From the NCBI RefSeq assembly GCF_044324785.1, contig NZ_CP172127.1: DNA of 64,000 bases; one strand, written 5' to 3'. Positions within the stretch are counted from its first letter, which is position 1. Every line of letters starts with the position of its first letter. Below, one piece after another: positions 3,612-59,194 of this stretch. The position numbers and the translations under genes were made by a program. Source of the DNA: Escherichia coli. GTDB taxonomy: Bacteria > Pseudomonadota > Gammaproteobacteria > Enterobacterales > Enterobacteriaceae. The notes beneath the pieces are model-generated. The model made no database searches. It was not told the origin of the DNA and worked only from the letters and a program-made list of their open reading frames with translations.

Positions 3612-3666
3612 CTGCATTCGCACCGCCCCGTAGGCCGGATAAGGCGTTCACGCCGCATCCGGCAAG
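3612..3666. repeat. REP (repetitive extragenic palindromic) element in the wzc-wcaA intergenic region
   Basis: gccccgtaggccggataaggcgttcacgccgcatccggcaag matches the enterobacterial REP consensus. Confidence 0.6.
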
Positions 3667-14012: not shown

Positions 14013-14113
14013 TAGTTGAATAATCAACCGGATTAATTCTCCGGTAAATAACGACAAAAACAAAATTGGCCGTTTCGGTCAGGGCCAACTACTGCCTGAA
14101 AAAGGGTAACGAT

Positions 14114-34492: not shown

Positions 34493-34682
34493 TATACAAA
34501 GCGGCAGGTTATGGCCTTTTTTTATAATTTATAGTTAAAAACGCGATATAATACAGCGCCGCACAGCAGGATCGCTGCCTTGACAGTTCATCTACATCAG
34601 CGTTAAAAATCCCGCAGTAGATGAAGTTGTGGTGGTGGACTAATGACCACTCTAAATGTTTAACCGGAAGAAGTCAGAGCTA

Positions 34683-35849
34683 ATGAAAATAACAATTTCA
34701 GGAACAGGTTATGTTGGTCTTTCAAATGGTATTCTGATTGCGCAAAATCACGAAGTGGTTGCACTGGATATCGTTCAGGCCAAAGTGGACATGCTTAACA
34801 AGAAGCAGTCACCGATTGTTGATAAGGAGATTGAAGAGTATCTGGCGACTAAAGATCTCAATTTCCGCGCTACGACAGATAAGTATGACGCGTATAAAAA
34901 TGCCGATTACGTTATTATTGCCACGCCTACCGATTATGACCCGAAAACAAATTATTTTAATACCTCAAGCGTGGAAGCGGTCATTCGCGATGTGACAGAA
35001 ATTAATCCTAATGCTGTCATGGTGATTAAATCTACAATTCCGGTAGGTTTCACCAAATCAATTAAAGAACGTCTGGGTATCGATAACCTTATTTTCTCTC
35101 CGGAATTTCTCCGTGAAGGTAAAGCCCTTTACGATAATCTCCATCCTTCACGTATTGTCATTGGTGAGCGTTCAGAACGCGCAGAACGTTTTGCTGCGTT
35201 GTTACAGGAAGGGGCGATTAAGCAAAATATCCCGACCCTGTTCACCGATTCAACCGAAGCAGAAGCGATTAAACTTTTCGCTAATACCTATCTGGCGATG
35301 CGCGTAGCATACTTTAATGAACTGGATAGCTATGCAGAAAGTTTAGGTCTGAATACTCGCCAGATTATCGAAGGCGTTTGTCTCGATCCGCGTATTGGCA
35401 ACCATTACAACAATCCGTCGTTTGGTTATGGTGGTTATTGTCTGCCGAAAGATACCAAGCAGTTACTGGCGAACTACCAGTCTGTGCCGAATAACCTGAT
35501 TTCGGCAATTGTCGATGCTAACCGCACACGTAAAGACTTTATTGCCGATGCCATTTTGTCACGCAAACCGCAAGTGGTGGGTATTTATCGTCTGATTATG
35601 AAGAGCGGTTCAGATAACTTCCGTGCGTCTTCCATTCAGGGGATTATGAAGCGTATCAAGGCGAAAGGCGTTGAAGTGATCATCTACGAACCGGTGATGA
35701 AAGAAGACTCATTCTTCAACTCTCGCCTGGAACGTGATCTCGCGACCTTCAAACAACAAGCCGACGTCATTATCTCTAACCGTATGGCAGAAGAGCTTAA
35801 GGATGTGGCAGATAAGGTATACACCCGCGATCTCTTTGGCAGTGACTAA
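34683..35849 (+). CDS. ugd: UDP-glucose 6-dehydrogenase
   Basis: 388 aa from ATG at 34683 ([16 protein letters not shown]...); matches E. coli Ugd. Confidence 0.9.
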
Positions 35850-35992
35850 CATCCTGTTATCAGGGCGATTTTCGCCCTGATTCTCTTATGTTCCCTTTGT
35901 AATAATTCATTATTTTTATCATTTATCCTATAGCATTCATGGCGATTATCGCTAAACTATGGCGACTTAAAATTATTTCGTCCGTTAGGGTA

Positions 35993-36973
35993 ATGATGAG
36001 AGTAGAAAATAATAATGTTTCTGGGCAAAACCATGACCCGGAACAGATTGATTTGATTGATTTACTGGTGCAGTTGTGGCGTGGCAAGATGACAATTATC
36101 ATCTCTGTCATTGTTGCTATTGCCCTGGCTATAGGGTATCTGGCCGTTGCCAAAGAAAAGTGGACTTCCACAGCTATCGTTACTCAACCTGATGTGGGGC
36201 AAATCGCTGGTTATACCAACGCGATGAATGTGATCTACGGATCGGCTGTACCGAAAGTCTCCGACATTCAGGCTTCACTTATCGGACGTTACAGCACTGC
36301 ATTCTCAGCATTAGCGGAAACGCTGGATAACCAGGAAGAAGCAGAAAAGCTGACCATTGAGCCTACCGTTAAAAATCAGTCATTACCTTTAGCGGTTTCT
36401 TATGTGGGTGAAACACCTGAAGGTGCGCAGAAACAGCTGGCGAAGTATATCCAGCAAGTTGACGACCAGGTAAACGAAGAACTGGAAAAAGACCTGAAAG
36501 ACAACATCGCGCTGCGTATGAAAAACTTGCAGGATTCGCTGAAGACCCAGGAAGTGGTCGCGCAGGAGCAGAAAGATCTGCGTATCCGTCAGATTCAGGA
36601 AGCGTTGCAGTATGCGAATCAGGCGCAGGTGACAAAGCCACAGGTTCAGCAGACTGAAGATGTGACACAAGACACGTTGTTCCTTTTGGGGAGCGAAGCG
36701 CTGGAGTCGATGATTAAGCATGAGGCGACCCGTCCGTTGGTGTTCTCGCCAAACTACTATCAGACTCGTCAAAACCTGCTGGATATCGAAAGCTTAAAAG
36801 TTGATGATCTTGATATTCATGCTTACCGTTATGTGATGAAACCGACGTTACCTATTCGTCGCGATAGTCCGAAAAAGGCAATCACCTTGATTCTGGCGGT
36901 GCTGCTGGGCGGCATGGTTGGCGCGGGGATTGTGCTGGGGCGTAACGCTCTGCGTAATTACAACGCGAAGTAA
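35993..36973 (+). CDS. wzzB: O-antigen chain-length determinant WzzB
   Basis: 326 aa; N- and C-terminal TM segments with coiled-coil periplasmic domain; matches E. coli WzzB. Confidence 0.9.
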   Translation: MMRVENNNVSGQNHDPEQIDLIDLLVQLWRGKMTIIISVIVAIALAIGYLAVAKEKWTSTAIVTQPDVGQIAGYTNAMNVIYGSAVPKVSDIQASLIGRYSTAFSALAETLDNQEEAEKLTIEPTVKNQSLPLAVSYVGETPEGAQKQLAKYIQQVDDQVNEELEKDLKDNIALRMKNLQDSLKTQEVVAQEQKDLRIRQIQEALQYANQAQVTKPQVQQTEDVTQDTLFLLGSEALESMIKHEATRPLVFSPNYYQTRQNLLDIESLKVDDLDIHAYRYVMKPTLPIRRDSPKKAITLILAVLLGGMVGAGIVLGRNALRNYNAK

Positions 36974-36990
36974 TCTTTTCGGTTTTAAAG

Positions 36991-37028
36991 AAAAAGGGCA
37001 GGGTGGTGACACCTTGCCCGTTTTTTTT
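36991..37028. terminator. Bidirectional rho-independent terminator between convergent wzzB and hisI
   Basis: 10-bp GC-rich stem (gggcagggtg/caccttgccc) flanked by A5 upstream and T8 downstream. Confidence 0.6.
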
Positions 37029-37069
37029 GCCGGATGCGACAACAATATCGCATCCGCTTACCCCGCAAC

Positions 37070-37674
37070 TCACTGATGCCGTTTACGCAGGTTCTCAATC
37101 ACCGTCGTTAAATCCAGATCCTGATCCTGCAACAATACCAGCAGGTGATACATCAAGTCAGACGCCTCGTTGGTGAGTTCAAAGCGGTCATGTACCGTTG
37201 CTGCTAGTGCGGTTTCCACGCCTTCTTCGCCCACTTTCTGTGCAATGCGTTTGGTGCCGCTGGCATACAGTTTGGCGGTGTAGGAGGTTTCCGGGTCGGC
37301 AGATTTACGTTCGGCGAGCAGTTGTTCCAGTTGATACAGGAACAGCCACTGGTGAGCGGTGTCGCCGAAGCAGCTGCTGGTGCCTTTGTGGCAGGTTGGT
37401 CCGATAGGATTCGCCAGTACCAGTAGCGTGTCGTTGTCGCAGTCCGGCGCAATATTTACTACGTTGAGGAAATTGCCCGACGTTTCGCCTTTGGTCCACA
37501 GCCGTTGTTTAGTGCGCGAGAAGAAGGTGACTTTGCCGCTTTCGATGGTTTTGTCTAAAGCTTCCGGGTTCATATAGCCCAGCATTAGCACTTCACCGGA
37601 TACCGCGTGTTGCACAATCACCGGCATAAGTCCGTCGGTTTTTTCCCAGTCCAGTTCGCGACGTTGTTGTTCTG

Positions 37675-37681
<7 letters not shown>
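37070..37681 (-). CDS. hisI: Bifunctional phosphoribosyl-AMP cyclohydrolase / phosphoribosyl-ATP pyrophosphatase
   Basis: 203 aa, matches E. coli HisIE. Confidence 0.95.
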
Positions 37682-39759
<2,078 letters not shown>

Positions 39760-39760
<1 letters not shown>

Positions 39761-40826
39761 TACAGCACTCCTTTCGACGAGGGCAGGGTATCGCCTTCCA
39801 CGCGGATGGCCTGGCGCAGGGTGCGACCAAAGGCTTTGAACAGGCTCTCTACACGGTGGTGATCGTTTTTACCTTTGGTTTTCAGGTGCAACGTCACGCC
39901 CATGGTGTAAGAGAGCGAACGGAAGAAGTGCTCGATCATCTCGGTGCTGAGATCGCCGACGCGCTGGTAGGTAAATTCAGCTTTATATTCCAGGTGTGGG
40001 CGACCAGAGATATCCAGTGCACAGCGGGCAAGGCATTCGTCCATCGGCAGCACAAAACCAAAGCGGCAAATACCGCGTTTGTCACCGAGGGCAATTTTTA
40101 ATGCTTCGCCCAGCGCCAGGCCGGTATCTTCGACGGTGTGGTGATCGTCGATATAGAGGTCGCCTTTGACGTTGATTTCCATACGGAAACCGCCGTGGGT
40201 AGCGATCTGATCCAGCATGTGATCAAAGAAGCCAACGCCGGTGTTAATCTTGCTGCCACCTTCGCGATCCAGCCACACCTGGACGTCAATCTGCGTCTCT
40301 TTGGTGTTGCGCACTACATGGGCGTAACGGTCTCGTTTCGTGAGTTGCTCGCCAATCATCGGCCAGTTCAGGGTTTCGCGGTTGTAGCGTAAACCATTAA
40401 TGCCCATGTTTTCCGCCAGTTGAATGTCGGTCGCGCGATCGCCAATCACATAACTGTTGGCGCGATCCATCGCTTGCTCAGCCAGGTAACGCTCCACCAG
40501 TTTTACTTTCGGCTTACGGCAGTCGCACTCATCGGCGGGCAGGTGCGGACAAATCAGCACTTCATCAAACTGCACGCCTTGCGAGGTGAAGATCTGCATC
40601 ATCAGGTTGTGCGGGCCATCAAAATCCGCCTGCGGGAAACTTTGTGTTCCAAGACCATCCTGATTAGTGATCATCACCAGCTTGTAGCCCGCTTTTTGCA
40701 GCTTCAGCAGCTCCGGGATCACGCCTGGTTCAAAGGCGAGTTTGTCAAAACGGTCCACCTGAAAATCACTCGGCGGTTCGCTAATCAGGGTTCCATCGCG
40801 ATCGATAAAAAGATACTTCTGACTCA

Positions 40827-40827
<1 letters not shown>
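39760..40827 (-). CDS. hisB: Bifunctional histidinol-phosphatase / imidazoleglycerol-phosphate dehydratase
   Basis: 355 aa from ATG at 40827 ([15 protein letters not shown]...); matches E. coli HisB. Confidence 0.95.
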
Positions 40828-43198
<2,371 letters not shown>

Positions 43199-43203
43199 GG
43201 CGA

Positions 43204-44103
43204 TCACTCCATCATCTTCTCAATCGGCAGGACCAGGATTGAACTGGCACCCAGCGCTTTCAGTTTTTCCATCGTTTCCCAGAACAGGGTTTCGCTGCTG
43301 ACCATGTGCATCGCTACGCGCTGTTGATCACCCGCCAGCGGCAGAATGGTTGGGCGTTCGGCACCTGGCAGCAGGGCGATGACTTCATCCAGGCGTTCGG
43401 TCGGTGCGTGCATCATGATGTATTTTGATTCGCGCGCCTGGATCACACCCTGAATACGGGTCAGCAGTTTGTCGATCAGCTGCTGTTTAGATTCTTCCAT
43501 TTCTCCATCGCGCTGGATCAGGCAGGCTTTCGAGCGGTAGATAACTTCGACTTCGCGCAGGCCATTTGCTTCCAGCGTGGCACCGGTGGAAACCAGATCG
43601 CAAATCGCATCCGCCAGTCCGGCGCGCGGGGCGACTTCAACAGAACCGTTCAGTAAGCAGGATTTAAAAGAGATGCCTTTCTGGTCGAGATAACGCTTGA
43701 GCAGGTGAGGATAAGAGGTGGCGATACGTTTACCGTTTAAGGAGAGCGGACCGTCCCAGGCTTCATCAACCGGCGTTGCCAGCGAAAGGCGGCAGCCGCC
43801 GAAATCCAGTCGACGCAGGGTAAAGTAGCGCGGATCTTCACCCTGGGCGCGGCGGTTAAGCAGCTCTTCTTCCAGCACGTTTTCGCCGATAATCCCAAGG
43901 TCTACCACGCCGTCCATTACCAGACCGGGAATGTCGTCGTCACGCACGCGCAGAATATCAATCGGCATGTTTTCTGCCATCGCGATCAGGCGCTGGGTGT
44001 GAAGATTAATTTTAATGCCACAGCGCGCCAGTAATTCGCGTGAGTCATCACTTAAACGGCCGGATTTCTGCATAGCTATGCGTAAACGAGTGTTGTCTGT
44101 CAT
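43204..44103 (-). CDS. hisG: ATP phosphoribosyltransferase
   Basis: 299 aa from ATG at 44103 ([15 protein letters not shown]...); matches E. coli HisG. Confidence 0.95.
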
Positions 44104-44248
44104 TTTGTTATTCCTCTTTAAACCTGTCTGAACCGTTATCAACCGCGCAATAAAAAAGCCCCCGGAAGGTGATCTTCCGGGGGCTTTCTCATGCGTTCAT
44201 GCACCACTGGAAGATCTGAATGTCTTCCAGCACACATCGCCTGAAAGA
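44104..44248 (-). promoter_or_regulatory. his operon attenuator, including the rho-independent terminator hairpin (about 44150-44186)
   Basis: Between hisL and hisG; minus-strand hairpin agcccccggaag/cttccgggggct followed by TTTTTTATT. Confidence 0.85.
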
Positions 44249-44299
44249 CTAGTCAGGATGATGGTGATGATGGTGGTGTTTAAATTGAACGCGTGTCAT
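44249..44299 (-). CDS. hisL: his operon leader peptide
   Basis: Minus-strand ORF ATG ACA CGC GTT CAA TTT AAA CAC CAC CAT CAT CAC CAT CAT CCT GAC TAG = MTRVQFKHHHHHHHPD (seven consecutive His codons). Confidence 0.95.
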   Translation of the reverse strand: MTRVQFKHHHHHHHPD

Positions 44300-44519
44300 A
44301 AAAGTCTCTGTGAATGTTTATTCAACTGATGTCATTTAACCTAAACCACTTTCACGTTAGAAAGCAAGGGCTTTTTTATATATTTTATGGCGATGGATTT
44401 GTTTAATGAATGAGCGGGGAAAGGTGGGGGCCAGGAGTGACTACGTTAGAAAAGTAATCGTGAAAATATGTCTTTAAAACCCTCAAGAACATTGTGTTCT
44501 GTAACTAAAGTGGGCTTTG

Positions 44520-44620
44520 TTCCTGCCGGATGCGGCGTGAATGCCTTATCAGGTCTACAAATGTTGCCTAAATTCAATATATTGATGTTTTTGTAGGACT
44601 GATAAGCGGAGCGCATCAGT
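44520..44620. repeat. BIME-like pair of inverted REP elements in the hisL-yeeZ intergenic region
   Basis: gccggatgcggcgtgaatgccttatcaggtctac (44525-44558) and inverted partner gtaggactgataagcggagcgcatcag (44593-44619). Confidence 0.6.
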
Positions 44621-44725
44621 CAATGGTATATTTGCTAACAGTTTCGATTTCATTCATAGAATGAATTGTCAGTTTTGATACGCTAGCGTAGCCTTATAGA
44701 TCTAAGGTGTATCAGGAGATAACGG

Positions 44726-45550
44726 ATGAAAAAGGTCGCAATTGTCGGGTTAGGGTGGTTAGGCATGCCGCTGGCGATGTCACTTTCAGCGCGAGGCTGG
44801 CAAGTCACCGGGAGTAAAACCACACAAGATGGTGTCGAAGCGGCCCGAATGAGTGGCATTGATAGCTATCTGCTTCGCATGGAGCCTGAGTTAGTTTGCG
44901 ATTCTGACGATCTGGATGCCCTGATGGATGCCGATGCGCTGGTCATTACGCTTCCGGCACGTCGTAGCGGCCCCGGCGATGAGTTCTATTTACAAGCGGT
45001 ACAAGAGTTAGTGGATAGCGCGCTGGCCCATCGTATTCCCCGCATTATTTTTACCAGCTCAACATCTGTCTATGGCGACGCGCAAGGCACGGTGAAAGAA
45101 ACCACCCCGCGTAATCCGGTGACCAACAGTGGACGAGTATTAGAAGAACTCGAAGACTGGTTGCACAATTTACCCGGTACTTCGGTCGATATTCTGCGTC
45201 TTGCGGGCCTGGTCGGGCCGGGACGTCATCCCGGACGTTTCTTTGCCGGAAAAACCGCCCCTGATGGTGAACATGGTGTTAATTTAGTCCATTTAGAAGA
45301 TGTTATTGGCGCTATCACTCTGTTGTTACAGGCACCTAAAGGCGGACACATCTATAATATATGTGCGCCAGCTCACCCTGCGCGTAATGTTTTCTACCCG
45401 CAGATGGCCCGTTTACTGGGGCTGGAACCTCCGCAGTTCAGAAATAGTCTGGACAGCGGCAAAGGTAAGATTATTGATGGCAGTCGGATTTGTAATGAAC
45501 TGGGATTTGAATACCAGTATCCCGATCCGCTGGTAATGCCGCTGGAGTAA
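44726..45550 (+). CDS. yeeZ: NAD(P)-binding epimerase/dehydratase-family protein YeeZ
   Basis: 274 aa, matches K-12 YeeZ. Confidence 0.85.
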   Translation: MKKVAIVGLGWLGMPLAMSLSARGWQVTGSKTTQDGVEAARMSGIDSYLLRMEPELVCDSDDLDALMDADALVITLPARRSGPGDEFYLQAVQELVDSALAHRIPRIIFTSSTSVYGDAQGTVKETTPRNPVTNSGRVLEELEDWLHNLPGTSVDILRLAGLVGPGRHPGRFFAGKTAPDGEHGVNLVHLEDVIGAITLLLQAPKGGHIYNICAPAHPARNVFYPQMARLLGLEPPQFRNSLDSGKGKIIDGSRICNELGFEYQYPDPLVMPLE

Positions 45551-45595
45551 ACGATCACGCCAGCAGGACGCCGCATGCACTGCAAGGGGGCGTGT

Positions 45596-46525
45596 ATGAA
45601 ACCACTGCTGGATGTGTTGATGATCCTCGATGCCTTAGAAAAAGAGGGCAGTTTTGCGGCGGCGTCGGCTAAACTCTACAAGACGCCGTCCGCTCTGAGT
45701 TATACCGTTCACAAGCTGGAAAGCGACCTTAATATTCAATTGCTTGATCGTAGCGGACACCGCGCTAAATTCACCCGCACCGGAAAAATGTTATTAGAGA
45801 AAGGGCGGGAAGTTCTGCATACCGTGCGAGAACTGGAAAAGCAGGCGATCAAACTGCATGAAGGCTGGGAAAACGAGCTGGTGATTGGCGTGGACGACAC
45901 GTTTCCTTTTTCTCTGCTTGCGCCACTCATTGAAGCTTTTTATCAACATCATAGTGTGACGCGCCTGAAGTTTATCAATGGCGTACTCGGTGGCTCCTGG
46001 GATGCCCTGACTCAGGGTCGAGCGGATATTATTGTTGGCGCAATGCATGAGCCACCATCTTCCAGTGAGTTTGGTTTTTCACGGTTGGGCGATCTGGAAC
46101 AAGTCTTTGCGGTCGCGCCTCATCATCCGTTAGCCCTGGAAGAAGAACCGTTAAACCGTCGTATCATTAAACGATATCGGGCGATTGTGGTGGGGGACAC
46201 TGCACAGGCCGGCGCTTCTACGGCCTCACAACTTCTCGACGAACAAGAAGCTATTACCGTTTTCGATTTTAAAACCAAGCTGGAGCTGCAAATTAGCGGC
46301 CTCGGCTGCGGCTATTTACCCCGTTATCTGGCGCAACGTTTTCTCGATAGTGGCGCGTTAATCGAGAAGAAAGTAGTCGCCCAAACTCTCTTTGAACCCG
46401 TCTGGATTGGCTGGAACGAACAGACCGCAGGGCTTGCCAGCGGTTGGTGGCGAGATGAAATTTTAGCAAATAGTGCGATCGCCGGTGTTTATGCAAAATC
46501 TGATGACGGAAAATCAGCCATTTAA
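45596..46525 (+). CDS. yeeY: LysR-family transcriptional regulator YeeY
   Basis: 309 aa from ATG at 45596 (MKPLLDVLMILDALEKEGSF...); N-terminal HTH; matches K-12 YeeY. Confidence 0.85.
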   Translation: MKPLLDVLMILDALEKEGSFAAASAKLYKTPSALSYTVHKLESDLNIQLLDRSGHRAKFTRTGKMLLEKGREVLHTVRELEKQAIKLHEGWENELVIGVDDTFPFSLLAPLIEAFYQHHSVTRLKFINGVLGGSWDALTQGRADIIVGAMHEPPSSSEFGFSRLGDLEQVFAVAPHHPLALEEEPLNRRIIKRYRAIVVGDTAQAGASTASQLLDEQEAITVFDFKTKLELQISGLGCGYLPRYLAQRFLDSGALIEKKVVAQTLFEPVWIGWNEQTAGLASGWWRDEILANSAIAGVYAKSDDGKSAI

Positions 46526-46791
46526 AGAAAAATTATTATGACAAGCCTCTCATTCTCTTGTCATTTCCCCCCCATTTAGGCACAATGCGCCGCTGTCAAA
46601 AAATGACTAAAAACCGACGTTTCATCAGCGTCGGTTATTTTTTGCTTCAAACCAATCATTCATACCAAGAGGCCGGGCTTCGTACCGGATAGATATTTAC
46701 TAAAAATCGACAGTTGTTGTCGCTGAGGAATCCAAAAAAATGGGGCAATTTTTTGCTTACGCGACGGTTATCACCGTAAAGGAGAATGACC

Positions 46792-48150
46792 ATGTCGCAT
46801 AACGTTACTCCAAACACCTCTCGCGTGGAATTGCGTAAAACGCTTACGTTAGTTCCGGTTGTAATGATGGGTCTTGCCTATATGCAGCCGATGACGCTGT
46901 TTGATACTTTTGGTATCGTTTCAGGCCTCACGGATGGTCATGTGCCGACAGCCTATGCGTTCGCATTGATTGCGATCCTGTTTACGGCTCTGAGCTACGG
47001 GAAGCTGGTTCGCCGCTATCCTTCTGCTGGCTCTGCATACACTTACGCCCAGAAATCCATTAGCCCGACTGTCGGCTTTATGGTGGGTTGGTCTTCTCTG
47101 CTCGACTATCTGTTCGCGCCGATGATCAACATTCTGCTGGCGAAAATCTATTTTGAAGCTCTGGTGCCTTCCATCCCATCGTGGATGTTTGTGGTGGCGC
47201 TGGTGGCCTTTATGACCGCCTTTAACCTGCGTAGTCTGAAATCCGTAGCGAACTTCAACACTGTAATCGTCGTGTTGCAGGTAGTGCTGATCGCGGTGAT
47301 TCTGGGCATGGTTGTTTATGGCGTATTTGAAGGTGAAGGCGCTGGTACGCTGGCGAGCACTCGTCCGTTCTGGTCTGGCGATGCGCATGTTATCCCGATG
47401 ATTACCGGGGCGACAATCCTGTGCTTCTCCTTTACCGGCTTTGACGGCATCAGCAACCTGTCGGAAGAAACCAAAGATGCAGAGCGCGTGATCCCGCGTG
47501 CGATTTTCCTGACCGCGCTGATCGGCGGCATGATCTTCATCTTTGCAACTTACTTCCTGCAACTGTATTTCCCGGATATCTCTCGCTTTAAAGATCCGGA
47601 TGCGTCACAGCCTGAAATCATGCTGTACGTTGCGGGTAAAGCGTTCCAGGTTGGCGCGCTGATCTTCTCCACCATTACCGTACTGGCGTCCGGTATGGCG
47701 GCGCACGCAGGCGTTGCGCGTCTGATGTACGTAATGGGGCGTGACGGTGTGTTCCCGAAAAGCTTCTTCGGTTATGTACACCCGAAATGGCGTACTCCGG
47801 CAATGAACATCATCCTGGTTGGCGCGATTGCCTTGCTGGCAATCAACTTCGACCTGGTAATGGCTACGGCGCTGATTAACTTTGGTGCGCTGGTGGCGTT
47901 CACCTTCGTTAACCTGTCGGTTATTTCGCAGTTCTGGATCCGTGAGAAGCGTAACAAGACGCTGAAAGATCACTTCCAGTATCTGTTCCTGCCGATGTGT
48001 GGTGCGCTGACCGTTGGTGCGCTGTGGGTTAACCTGGAAGAAAGCTCAATGGTTCTGGGTCTGATCTGGGCGGCTATCGGCCTGATTTACCTGGCTTGCG
48101 TCACCAAGAGCTTCCGTAACCCGGTTCCGCAGTACGAAGACGTTGCATAA
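46792..48150 (+). CDS. plaP: Low-affinity putrescine importer PlaP (APC superfamily)
   Basis: 452 aa from ATG at 46792 ([10 protein letters not shown]...); 12-TM amino acid permease fold; matches K-12 PlaP/YeeF. Confidence 0.9.
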
Positions 48151-48167
48151 TCATCTTTTCTAATAAT

Positions 48168-48207
48168 AAACCGGAGTCGAATGAATATTTGGCTCCGGTT
48201 TTTTTAT
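48168..48207 (+). terminator. Rho-independent terminator downstream of plaP
   Basis: Stem aaccggag/ctccggtt followed by a T7 run. Confidence 0.55.
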
Positions 48208-48328
48208 TCTTTTTTATCGATATCCTCATTAATAACCATTTGTTCTAATTTAGAGAATTTGGTTATTGGTCTGCATTCCACCAGTCATGAATAATTTCCC
48301 TATTAACATTCATCTGGTTAATTAATTT

Positions 48329-49387
48329 ATGTTTTCAATGATATTAAGCGGGCTAATTTGTGGTGCTCTGCTGGGATTTGTCATGCAGCGTGGGCGTTTT
48401 TGCCTGACAGGTGGTTTTCGCGATATGTATATCGCAAAAAATAATCGCATGTTTTACGCCTTGCTGATTGCAATTTCGGTACAAAGCGTGGGGGTTTTTG
48501 CGTTAATTCAGGCGGGCCTACTGACTTACGAAGCCGGGGCGTTCCCGTGGCTTGGTACTGTTATAGGTGGGTATATCTTCGGGCTGGGAATTGTTCTGGC
48601 GGGTGGATGTGCCACCGGGACCTGGTATCGCGCGGGTGAGGGATTGATCGGCAGTTGGATCGCGCTTTTCACTTATATGGTGATGAGTGCGGTGATGCGT
48701 TCTCCACATGCCAGTGGTTTAAATCAAACCTTGCAGCACTACAGTACTGAACATAACTCTATTGCTGAGACTTTTAATTTGTCTGTGTGGCCGTTGGTTA
48801 CCGTTTTGCTGGTGATAACGCTCTGGGTGGTGATGAAAGAGTTGAAGAAGCCAAAACTCAAAGTCGCGACCTTACCGCCGCGCCGAACCGGGATCGCTCA
48901 TATTCTGTTTGAAAAACGCTGGCATCCCTTTGTCACTGCTGTACTCATCGGTTTGATTGCGCTTTTAGCCTGGCCCCTGAGTGAAGCAACCGGACGCATG
49001 TTTGGGTTAGGAATCACTTCCCCAACGGCCAATATTCTGCAATTTCTGGTCGCGGGTGACGTGAAATACATTAACTGGGGCGTTTTCCTGGTGTTAGGGA
49101 TCTTCGTGGGGTCATTTATTGCAGCCAAAGCGAGCCGTGAGTTCCGCGTTCGCGCAGCTGATGCACAAACAACATTACGTAGCGGGTTAGGTGGTGTACT
49201 GATGGGCTTCGGTGCCAGTATTGCAGGTGGTTGCTCTATCGGTAATGGACTGGTTATGACTGCAATGATGACCTGGCAGGGCTGGATTGGCCTTGTATTT
49301 ATGATTCTCGGAGTCTGGACTGCGTCCTGGCTTGTGTATGTTCGACCGCAGCGTAAGGCGCGACTGGCAACTGCTGCGGCAAATTAA
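48329..49387 (+). CDS. yeeE: Inner-membrane sulfur-compound (thiosulfate) transporter family protein YeeE
   Basis: 352 aa multi-TM protein, matches K-12 YeeE. Confidence 0.85.
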   Translation: MFSMILSGLICGALLGFVMQRGRFCLTGGFRDMYIAKNNRMFYALLIAISVQSVGVFALIQAGLLTYEAGAFPWLGTVIGGYIFGLGIVLAGGCATGTWYRAGEGLIGSWIALFTYMVMSAVMRSPHASGLNQTLQHYSTEHNSIAETFNLSVWPLVTVLLVITLWVVMKELKKPKLKVATLPPRRTGIAHILFEKRWHPFVTAVLIGLIALLAWPLSEATGRMFGLGITSPTANILQFLVAGDVKYINWGVFLVLGIFVGSFIAAKASREFRVRAADAQTTLRSGLGGVLMGFGASIAGGCSIGNGLVMTAMMTWQGWIGLVFMILGVWTASWLVYVRPQRKARLATAAAN

Positions 49388-49400
49388 GTAAGGTGTAAAG

Positions 49401-49628
49401 ATGGCGATTAAAAAGCTGGATGTGGTGACGCAGGTCTGTCCGTTTCCACTCATAGAAGCAAAAGCAGCACTGGCAGAAATGGCCAGCGGCGATGAGTTGG
49501 TAATTGAGTTTGATTGCACCCAGGCAACTGAAGCAATCCCACAGTGGGCGGCAGAAGAAGGACATGCCATCACCGATTATCAGCAGATTGGCGATGCAGC
49601 GTGGAGCATCACCGTTCAAAAAGCCTGA
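49401..49628 (+). CDS. yeeD: TusA-like sulfurtransferase YeeD
   Basis: 75 aa with CPxP motif (VCPFPL); matches K-12 YeeD; adjacent to yeeE. Confidence 0.85.
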   Translation: MAIKKLDVVTQVCPFPLIEAKAALAEMASGDELVIEFDCTQATEAIPQWAAEEGHAITDYQQIGDAAWSITVQKA

Positions 49629-49670
49629 CTCAACATTGTCCTCCGCCGTACCAGCGGCGGAGGCTTCAAA

Positions 49671-51098
49671 TTAGACGATCTCTTCCGCGTACTGCCAAAG
49701 CGCTTTTAACAGCGCCACTTTCTCTTTGTTATCGGCATATTGTTGTGCCAGCATCTGCAATTCATCTGCATAACCCTGTAAAAACTCTGGCGTGAAGACC
49801 TGGCGGCGGTGCTCCAGCCAGCGTTGCTGCTCGGCATAATCCAGCGTCCCCGGGAAGTTGCGCGCCCGATAATTGAACAACAGCTTTTCAATTCGTTTAT
49901 CAACAAAAGTGATATCCAGTGCCGGTAAATTACGCGGCTCGGTTTCCAGCACAATTTTCATTGCTGCACGATCGGCGTCACTGAAAAAGCCATTATAAAG
50001 CTGTGCATCCACATTATCTGAAGGTGTAAACGGTTCGGCTTCCGCGAATATCGCTACCACTTTTTCACGCACTTGCGGATTTTCACGCAGAATTTTTAGG
50101 TTATCGAGGCAATGCTGACGATTAATTCCCAGTCGGTCGGCATCTTCCGGGCGTAGCGTATTCGCCTGGGCCAGTACCGGACATTTATTGATATGCACCA
50201 GCTTAACCGGAACGGCGGCGTTATCGCCAAGATCGGCTTTTGCGGTATATAAACGCTCGCGCAATGTGTCGCTATCCAGTTCCAGTAATGGCGAAATGTC
50301 TCCTGCCAAATCCACCATAATTACGGCATTGCGATTTTCAGGATGCCACGCCAGCGGTGCTACCCAGCTGGTATTGCCGCGCCATGCCCCAAACATTCCG
50401 GAAACGTGAACCAGGGGTTTCATCTGCGGAACATCAATCAACGCCATTAGTTTGTGTTTATTACGATGGGTAAAGAGATAATCAAACAGGCGCGGCTGGC
50501 GCGTTTTTACCAGTTTTGCCATCGCAATAGTGGCGTACACATCAGCCATCGCATCGTGTGCGTTGCTATGTTCAATACCATTCGCTTTGGTTAAATGCTC
50601 AAGGCGAAAGCTCGGTAGACCGTCATCATTTTCAGGCCAGTTTATTCCTTCCGGGCGCAGGGCATAACAGGCACGCATAACATCCAGCAAATCCCAGCGC
50701 GAGTTATCATGCTGCCAGCTCCAGGCGTAAGGATCGTAGAAATTACGATAAAAAACGTTGCGTGTGACTTCGTCGTCGAAACGCACATTGTTGTAGCCCA
50801 GAATACAGGTCTTCGGTACGGTAAAAAGCGAGTGAATACGGGCGGCAAACGCGGCTTCGTTTTCTCCTTTCGCCCGTGCTTCCTGCGGGGTAATACCGGT
50901 AATTAATACTGCTCCAGGCTGGGGTAAATAGTCATCCGCGGGCTTGCAGTAAAAGACTTCGGGTTCGCCGATGACATTGAATTCGCTATCGGTGCGAATG
51001 GCTGCGAACTGTGCAGGGCGATCTAACGCGGGGTGCGTGCCAAAGGTTTCGTAATCGTGAAACAAAAAGGTAGATTGTTGCTTACCGTCATTCATCAT
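49671..51098 (-). CDS. sbcB: Exodeoxyribonuclease I
   Basis: 475 aa from ATG at 51098 (MMNDGKQQSTFLFHDYETFG...); DEDDh exonuclease motif; matches E. coli SbcB. Confidence 0.95.
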   Translation of the reverse strand: MMNDGKQQSTFLFHDYETFGTHPALDRPAQFAAIRTDSEFNVIGEPEVFYCKPADDYLPQPGAVLITGITPQEARAKGENEAAFAARIHSLFTVPKTCILGYNNVRFDDEVTRNVFYRNFYDPYAWSWQHDNSRWDLLDVMRACYALRPEGINWPENDDGLPSFRLEHLTKANGIEHSNAHDAMADVYATIAMAKLVKTRQPRLFDYLFTHRNKHKLMALIDVPQMKPLVHVSGMFGAWRGNTSWVAPLAWHPENRNAVIMVDLAGDISPLLELDSDTLRERLYTAKADLGDNAAVPVKLVHINKCPVLAQANTLRPEDADRLGINRQHCLDNLKILRENPQVREKVVAIFAEAEPFTPSDNVDAQLYNGFFSDADRAAMKIVLETEPRNLPALDITFVDKRIEKLLFNYRARNFPGTLDYAEQQRWLEHRRQVFTPEFLQGYADELQMLAQQYADNKEKVALLKALWQYAEEIV

Positions 51099-59118: not shown

Positions 59119-59194
59119 TGGCTCCTCTGACTGGACTCGAACCAGTGACATACGGATTAACAGTCCGCCGTTCTACCGACTGAACTACAGAGGA
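59119..59194 (-). tRNA. asnV: tRNA-Asn (GUU anticodon), asnV-equivalent by synteny
   Basis: 76 nt, reverse complement equals TCCTCTGTAGTTCAGTCGGTAGAACGGCGGACTGTTAATCCGTATGTCACTGGTTCGAGTCCAGTCAGAGGAGCCA; cloverleaf with GTT anticodon and encoded CCA. Confidence 0.95.

Follow-up and report, generated by a model that had tools for sequence, protein, structure and literature searches.

Does the stretch that separates the start codon of a short His-rich reading frame from the start codon of hisG in an Escherichia coli chromosome hold an intact transcription attenuator, and can its RNA choose between terminator and antiterminator according to the position of the ribosome? We addressed these two questions for the minus strand of positions 44104-44299 in a stretch of 64,000 nt (contig NZ_CP172127.1; the whole stretch is hereafter called the window). 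A sequence-only reading had described this part of the window as the textbook his attenuation element, "fully intact", in which a 16-codon leader with seven consecutive His codons is followed by alternative pairing segments and by a terminator hairpin plus U-tract ahead of hisG. The his operon has no repressor, and attenuation is its only specific control (PMC1183508). Our own analysis supplies the sequence elements, their identity to K-12, the match to the RNA family and, in silico, the way in which the nascent fold depends on where the ribosome sits. For pausing and termination as such, and for the response to charging of His-tRNA, we draw on published work on K-12 and Salmonella, whose sequence is identical.

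The hisL reading frame and the terminator ahead of hisG

The 196 nt of 44104-44299 reach from the hisL ATG (44299) to the base preceding the hisG ATG (44104). Translation of the minus strand from that first ATG gives the peptide MTRVQFKHHHHHHHPD, encoded by 16 codons and followed by a stop (ATG ACA CGC GTT CAA TTT AAA CAC CAC CAT CAT CAC CAT CAT CCT GAC TAG), and the leader with its seven consecutive His codons was thereby recovered on the strand and at the positions that had been given for it (Table 1). The (CAY)7 run occurs a single time in the 64-kb window, with 0 occurrences expected from 100 dinucleotide-preserving shuffles. In form, the predicted ORF is a short leader that carries, one after another, codons of the amino acid made by the operon. 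RefSeq labels the matching E. coli DNA as hisL, "his operon leader peptide", together with "His leader region", followed by hisG.

Folding of the complete 196 nt yields a structure of -72.3 kcal/mol, compared to -47.3 +/- 4.55 kcal/mol in dinucleotide shuffles (z = -5.49; no shuffle out of 200 reached that energy), which is made up of the three hairpins A:B, C:D and E:F. When the whole window was scanned against Rfam, the minus strand at 44273..44150 matched the full length of the RF00514 (His_leader) model, positions 1-126 of 126, with 131.6 bits against a gathering score of 49 (E = 1.4e-21). His_leader is the sole Rfam family to reach its gathering score within 44104-44330; no riboswitch or T-box model matched there, and control by a T-box or a riboswitch was rejected on this ground. 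The hairpin and U-tract proposed as the terminator are found in E:F (44192..44150), which carries the U-tract in its 3' arm. Its G+C-rich stem of 19 bp (44192..44174 / 44168..44150), with the 3' arm entering UUUUUUAU, is worth -32.2 kcal/mol alone and ends at 44150, 46 nt ahead of the hisG ATG, which places an intrinsic terminator after the leader ORF and before the first structural gene. A simple consensus terminator scan did not list E:F, likely because no T-rich tail remains beyond a stem that already reaches into the U-tract. The one terminator-like match of the scan, at 43979..43963, was discarded, being internal to hisG and no more than chance would give (0.6 +/- 0.8 expected).

The gene downstream of this hairpin, which encodes 299 aa, matches the NCBIfam equivalog TIGR00070 with 193.4 bits (cutoff 75.75) and the HisG C-terminal domain model TIGR03455 with 114.2 bits. 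The attenuator stands directly upstream of, and co-oriented with, the complete his operon hisGDCBHAFI. On strain N3 (NZ_CP031609.1), which is colinear with the window and identical to it over 42001-48000 (with 1 mismatch), the downstream order is hisG, hisD, hisC, hisB, hisH, hisA, hisF and hisIE, then wzzB, ugd and gnd.

From the hisL ATG to the hisG ATG the window is 100% identical to K-12 MG1655, which bears out the description of the element as fully intact; the identity begins 35 nt ahead of the hisL ATG and holds as far as the hisG start, and two differences lie farther upstream. Among complete E. coli genomes, 5,423 of 5,426 carry the 196-nt element, and a 701-nt query that includes its surroundings gave the same count (5,423/5,426). 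The match to RF00514, the identity to K-12, the RefSeq annotation and the site upstream of hisGDCBHAFI all agree with the assignment as the textbook his attenuation element. In other words, the element is almost certainly the hisL leader and ribosome-mediated transcription attenuator of the hisLGDCBHAFI operon.

Table 1. Features of the his leader region in the window, in the order of transcription (all on the minus strand).
Feature	Position	Strand	Basis or energy
Single-base variant, T where K-12 has A	44334	(-)	Alignment with K-12 MG1655
Inferred transcription start (+1, A)	44330	(-)	Inferred
hisL, MTRVQFKHHHHHHHPD + UAG	44249..44299	(-)	ORF translation; RefSeq hisL (WP_001364200.1) on identical DNA
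Seven consecutive His codons (CAC CAC CAU CAU CAC CAU CAU), regulatory codons	44258..44278	(-)	Translation
Segment A, 5' arm of A:B, within the hisL reading frame (final His codons, Pro and Asp)	44253..44266	(-)	MFE folds; Rfam consensus helix 1
his pause hairpin, apical part of A:B; 5-bp stem CCUGA (44257..44253) / UCAGG (44244..44240), 8-nt loop CUAGUCUU	44240..44257	(-)	-4.6 kcal/mol
Segment B; partners A (via 44244..44231) or C (via 44249..44241)	44231..44249	(-)	MFE folds
Pause-site consensus: G-10 (44238), U-1 (44229, pause position), G+1 (44228)	44228..44238	(-)	Sequence letters
Segment C, CUGGAAGAC; partners B or D	44222..44232	(-)	B:C -10.6, C:D -12.7 kcal/mol
Segment D, AUCUUCCAGUGGU; partners C, or E (antiterminator)	44203..44215	(-)	D:E -12.3 kcal/mol
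Segment E, terminator 5' arm; alternative partner D	44172..44192	(-)	MFE folds
Segment F, terminator 3' arm including the U-tract CUUCCGGGGGCUUUUUUAU	44150..44168	(-)	Rfam match; E:F 19 bp, -32.2 kcal/mol
hisG Shine-Dalgarno core GAGG, 9 nt before the ATG	44113..44116	(-)	Sequence reading, inferred
hisG, ATP phosphoribosyltransferase, first structural gene under attenuator control (ATG 44103, end 43204)	43204..44103	(-)	TIGR00070, TIGR03455

Ribosome position and the choice between alternative pairings

The hisL pause has been defined by a hairpin with a 5-bp stem and an 8-nt loop, a distance of 10 nt from the stem to the pause site, and the consensus G-10 Y-1 G+1 (PMC9291695). In the window, the apical part of A:B has the stem and loop of these dimensions, a 10-nt spacer leads from the hairpin to the pause site, and the three consensus positions are occupied as listed in Table 1. 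The predicted signature of a hairpin-dependent pause is complete and agrees with the published criteria. Experiments showed that the hairpin and the consensus are both needed for the hisL pause and that NusA prolongs it (PMC9291695).

Alternative pairing segments had been proposed for the RNA downstream of the leader ORF, and folding found both a terminator and an antiterminator that exclude one another. The core of D:E (44215..44209 : 44178..44172), together with its extensions, occupies the 5' arm of the terminator (44184..44172 of E), and B:C competes with C:D for segment C. The energies of the individual hairpins are -11.8 kcal/mol for A:B, -10.6 for B:C, -12.7 for C:D, -12.3 for D:E and -32.2 for E:F, so that A:B, B:C, C:D and D:E are nearly isoenergetic. 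In the folding model, a switch that works by occlusion of one arm would require just such near-equal energies of the four intermediate hairpins.

When the complete leader was folded at equilibrium with a ribosome mask of about 30 nt, the terminator was present in the minimum free energy structure for every masked codon position, because E:F alone is worth -32.2 kcal/mol. This approach was unable to reveal the switch and was replaced by folding of the nascent transcript without F. The switch would accordingly exist in the model only as a kinetic, co-transcriptional choice, decided before F leaves the polymerase. For the nascent fold we used the transcript from 44330, the inferred start, to 44172, at which point E is out and F has not been made, and placed a 28-nt ribosome mask at each A-site codon; the model is crude in that both footprint (28 nt) and 3' end are fixed.

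In the absence of a ribosome, the nascent transcript folds into A:B (12 pairs) and C:D (7), and E is free. With the A site on His codons 8-13, it folds into B:C (9 bp) and D:E (14 pairs), E is sequestered and C:D is not formed. In this antiterminated fold, GUCUUUCAG (44249..44241) pairs with CUGGAAGAC (44230..44222), and AUCUUCC (44215..44209) pairs with GGAAGAU (44178..44172), a core beyond which the helix is extended. Once the A site is on codons 14-17, from the last His codon to the stop, C:D (7-10 bp) forms, D:E does not, and E is free again. The antiterminator also formed with the A site on codon 5, and codon 14 as A site, on the last His codon, gave C:D rather than the antiterminator; in the model, the exact codon boundaries of the switch depend on the assumed footprint and 3' end. 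Pairing of E gains about 3 kcal/mol when, and only when, the ribosome occupies the His codons; at other times the gain is about 1.2 kcal/mol and comes from unrelated weak pairs. Within this model, the choice of pairing follows the position of the ribosome on the leader ORF, as in the six-segment model.

Read in terms of the six-segment model, RNA polymerase would pause at U44229, right after the small A:B pause hairpin has been made, and the pause would give time for a ribosome to load on hisL, by which transcription and translation would become coupled. When charged tRNA-His is plentiful, the ribosome would translate all seven His codons, reach the end of the ORF and cover A and B; C:D would then pair and leave E free for F, and E:F with its U-tract would terminate transcription before hisG. 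When charged tRNA-His is scarce, the ribosome would stall on the His codons and cover only A, allowing B:C and D:E to form; E would be unavailable when F emerges, no terminator would arise, and transcription would read through into hisG. Where there is no translation, A:B, C:D and E:F would all form and termination would be maximal. The mechanism of the his attenuator has been described in several studies (PMC1183508, PMC9291695, PMC5371410), and the response of termination and read-through to charged tRNA-His is known for the identical K-12 and Salmonella sequence (PMC1183508, PMC9291695).

Relatives of the leader and rival explanations

The hisL attenuator of K-12 and Salmonella Typhimurium (RF00514, with the model of segments A-F) has the same peptide, pairings, pause hairpin, pause consensus and site as the element in the window. 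The E. coli trpL attenuator works on the same principle: its leader ORF is translated and holds regulatory codons, a pause hairpin brings ribosome and polymerase into step, and antiterminator and terminator exclude one another; trpL differs in having two Trp codons and four segments (1-4), compared to seven His codons and six segments in the his leader (PMC1183508). The extra C:D hairpin of the his leader is thought to lower basal read-through and to keep it low, as is discussed in the same work together with the coupling of ribosome and polymerase by the pause (PMC1183508).

In order to place the element among its relatives, we scanned one genome per species for a reading frame ending in His7-Pro-Asp-stop and obtained 76 loci, all from Enterobacteriaceae or from unclassified 'Proteobacteria' MAGs. 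From these, 57 distinct, untruncated leaders of about 25 genera were aligned, a comparative set in which selection by His7-Pro-Asp-stop predetermines some of segment A. Across the alignment, segments B-F show little or no variation. Changes fall in the loops of C:D and of the terminator, in the spacer that separates D from E, and at the base of the terminator stem; among non-coding columns, 14 of 22 unpaired ones vary, against 23 of 77 paired ones (Fisher p = 0.006). Across the 57 leaders, 98.5% of the cells are paired in the terminated form and 99.6% in the antiterminated form, compared to 44-56% after a shift of the partners by 1-3 columns. The stems hardly vary at all, with a two-sided change in one pair only and with shuffled controls equal to the observed values, and covariation analysis is uninformative for this reason. 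Both conformations would be kept by near-invariance and not by covariation, a pattern of conservation that is consistent with each segment serving two pairings. The only common substitution in a stem, A to G at 44226 in segment C (16/57 leaders), gives a G.U pair with both alternative partners, a U in B and a U in D.

The leaders of other Enterobacteriaceae resemble the one in the window in their His7-Pro-Asp-stop and in near-invariant segments B-F, and differ from it in loops, spacers and the N-termini of the peptide (MTR, MSR, MNR, MKS, MIS and others). Two variants of the reading frame were seen alongside. In hisL of Trabulsiella odontotermitis (L060:1179-1345), a 9-nt in-frame expansion gives ten consecutive His codons, with the downstream pairing segments unchanged. 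In two leaders of Pseudocitrobacter (L011, L015) and two of Trabulsiella (L054, L062), the ATG lies one codon downstream (ATT ATG TGC..., TTT ATG AGC...), which gives a leader peptide of 15 residues with the same His7-Pro-Asp end.

Against this background, three other explanations of the element can be weighed. The arrangement of a His-rich ORF and hairpins could be fortuitous, or a decayed remnant that regulates nothing; the probability of this is close to nil, as a (CAY)7 run is expected 0 times, the fold has a z of -5.49 and the Rfam match an E of 1.4e-21, and both versions are further refuted by the identity to the functional K-12 element, its near-universal presence in E. coli and its conservation across Enterobacteriaceae. 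A role in trans, in which the terminated leader transcript of about 180 nt would act as a small regulatory RNA as well, or through its His-rich peptide, would fit an abundant and highly structured RNA with an intrinsic terminator. RNase III cleaves this RNA within E:F, and accumulation of the leader has been shown in an rnc mutant (PMC5371410), both of which point to a dedicated route for its turnover. The cleavage is, however, read as mere recycling of the terminated leader (PMC5371410), the pattern of leader conservation is fully explained by the overlapping cis pairings, and neither a target nor a seed-like conserved unpaired stretch was found for a leader acting in trans; we regard such a role as very improbable.

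A proposal published in 2023 for the E. coli his leader would add a further layer over the classical attenuator, in which formation of E:F is promoted by DnaA and tRNA-His through binding to "rDnaA boxes" of the leader RNA (PMC10989985). Attenuation of hisG was found to depend on DnaA and on the hisL stem-loop region, and boxes were proposed before A:B, between C:D and E:F, and after E:F (PMC10989985). The window equals K-12 across all of them, and the behaviour of K-12 would apply equally here, the boxes being present by identity only. On the other hand, the authors themselves term their model "possible" and report RNA binding in vivo, not in vitro (PMC10989985), and each box has two mismatches to the 9-nt consensus, which amounts to weak specificity. 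Ribosome position alone already explains the switch in silico, and our sequence analysis requires no protein factor. We consider a contribution of DnaA to this leader unlikely; the proposal would in any case supplement and not replace the classical mechanism, and ribosome-mediated attenuation remains our reading of the element.

Chromosomal surroundings and the promoter region

Relative to K-12, the window has no difference within the element, and upstream of it two single-base differences (44392 and 44334) and no yefM-yoeB. These toxin-antitoxin genes, which K-12 carries between yeeZ and hisL, are missing here (window 44400-44660), and about 215 nt of unrelated sequence take their place, in which two REP-like palindromic units lie inverted to each other (arms 44545-44561 / 44590-44606). 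An exact REP core, GCCGGATGCGGCGTGAA, lies at 44525-44541, and a second exact copy of it at 3647-3663 (-). A contiguous yeeZ-hisL stretch as in the window is found in 1,193 of 5,423 E. coli genomes (about 22%).

Comparison to strain N3 revealed a divergence of 2-4% per kb over 33001-42000, across gnd-ugd-wzzB and hisIE through hisC, next to the nearly identical 42001-48000. The 701-nt query is 100% identical in N3, but in view of this divergence an origin of the window from N3 itself was rejected. Judged from the sequences, this mosaic is consistent with recombination next to the O-antigen locus. An apparent insertion of 1.45 kb relative to N3 (48153-49672), considered as a possible IS element, turned out to be yeeE/yeeD, which is also present in K-12, and the deletion is that of N3. 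The segment holds an ORF for a membrane protein of 352 aa (48329-49387) at the yeeE/yeeD position between plaP and sbcB, as in K-12.

Several further RNA features were noted in the window. Between yeeY and plaP, Rfam matched the enterobacterial sRNA STnc240 at 46571-46645 (+) with 68.2 bits (gathering score 55); the small gene yoeI (46740-46802, from the colinear N3 annotation) follows about 100 nt downstream. Other Rfam matches are an 'algC RNA' at 14060-14109 (+, 74.2 bits) and a JUMPstart RNA at 24933-24971 (+, 57.6 bits), the latter a marker of where a gene cluster for a polysaccharide (O-antigen or colanic acid) begins upstream of gnd. Three tRNA genes with 72.6 bits each lie at 59122-59194 (-), 61531-61603 (-) and 63352-63424 (+). 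The first of these has the anticodon loop CUGUUAA, hence the anticodon GUU of tRNA-Asn, and the three are likely to be the copies of asn tRNA that lie clustered in E. coli.

Upstream of hisL, we take TTGCTT (44362..44367, minus strand) to be the -35 hexamer and TAGGTT (44338..44343, minus strand), which is unchanged in K-12, to be the -10 hexamer of the his promoter, an assignment made from general knowledge of this promoter. The two hexamers are spaced by 18 nt, and the inferred transcription start lies about 31 nt 5' of hisL. A consensus promoter scan did not list the his promoter, whose presumed -35 hexamer has 3 of the 6 bases of TTGACA. Of the two single-base differences from K-12 found 5' of hisL, the one at 44334 falls between the -10 hexamer and the inferred start, 4 nt downstream of TAGGTT and about 4 nt upstream of +1 (about -4). 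The allele is rare, since the surrounding 61 nt (44304-44364) are 100% identical in just 5 of 5,354 complete E. coli genomes.

The attenuator itself is already known and adds no new biology, the copy in the window being identical to the reference; it anchors the window in the E. coli chromosome along yeeZ-hisL-hisG...wzzB-ugd-gnd. There is a slim chance that the A-to-T change at 44334 alters the strength of the his promoter or its response to ppGpp in this lineage; if it does, a different amount of transcription would reach the attenuator.
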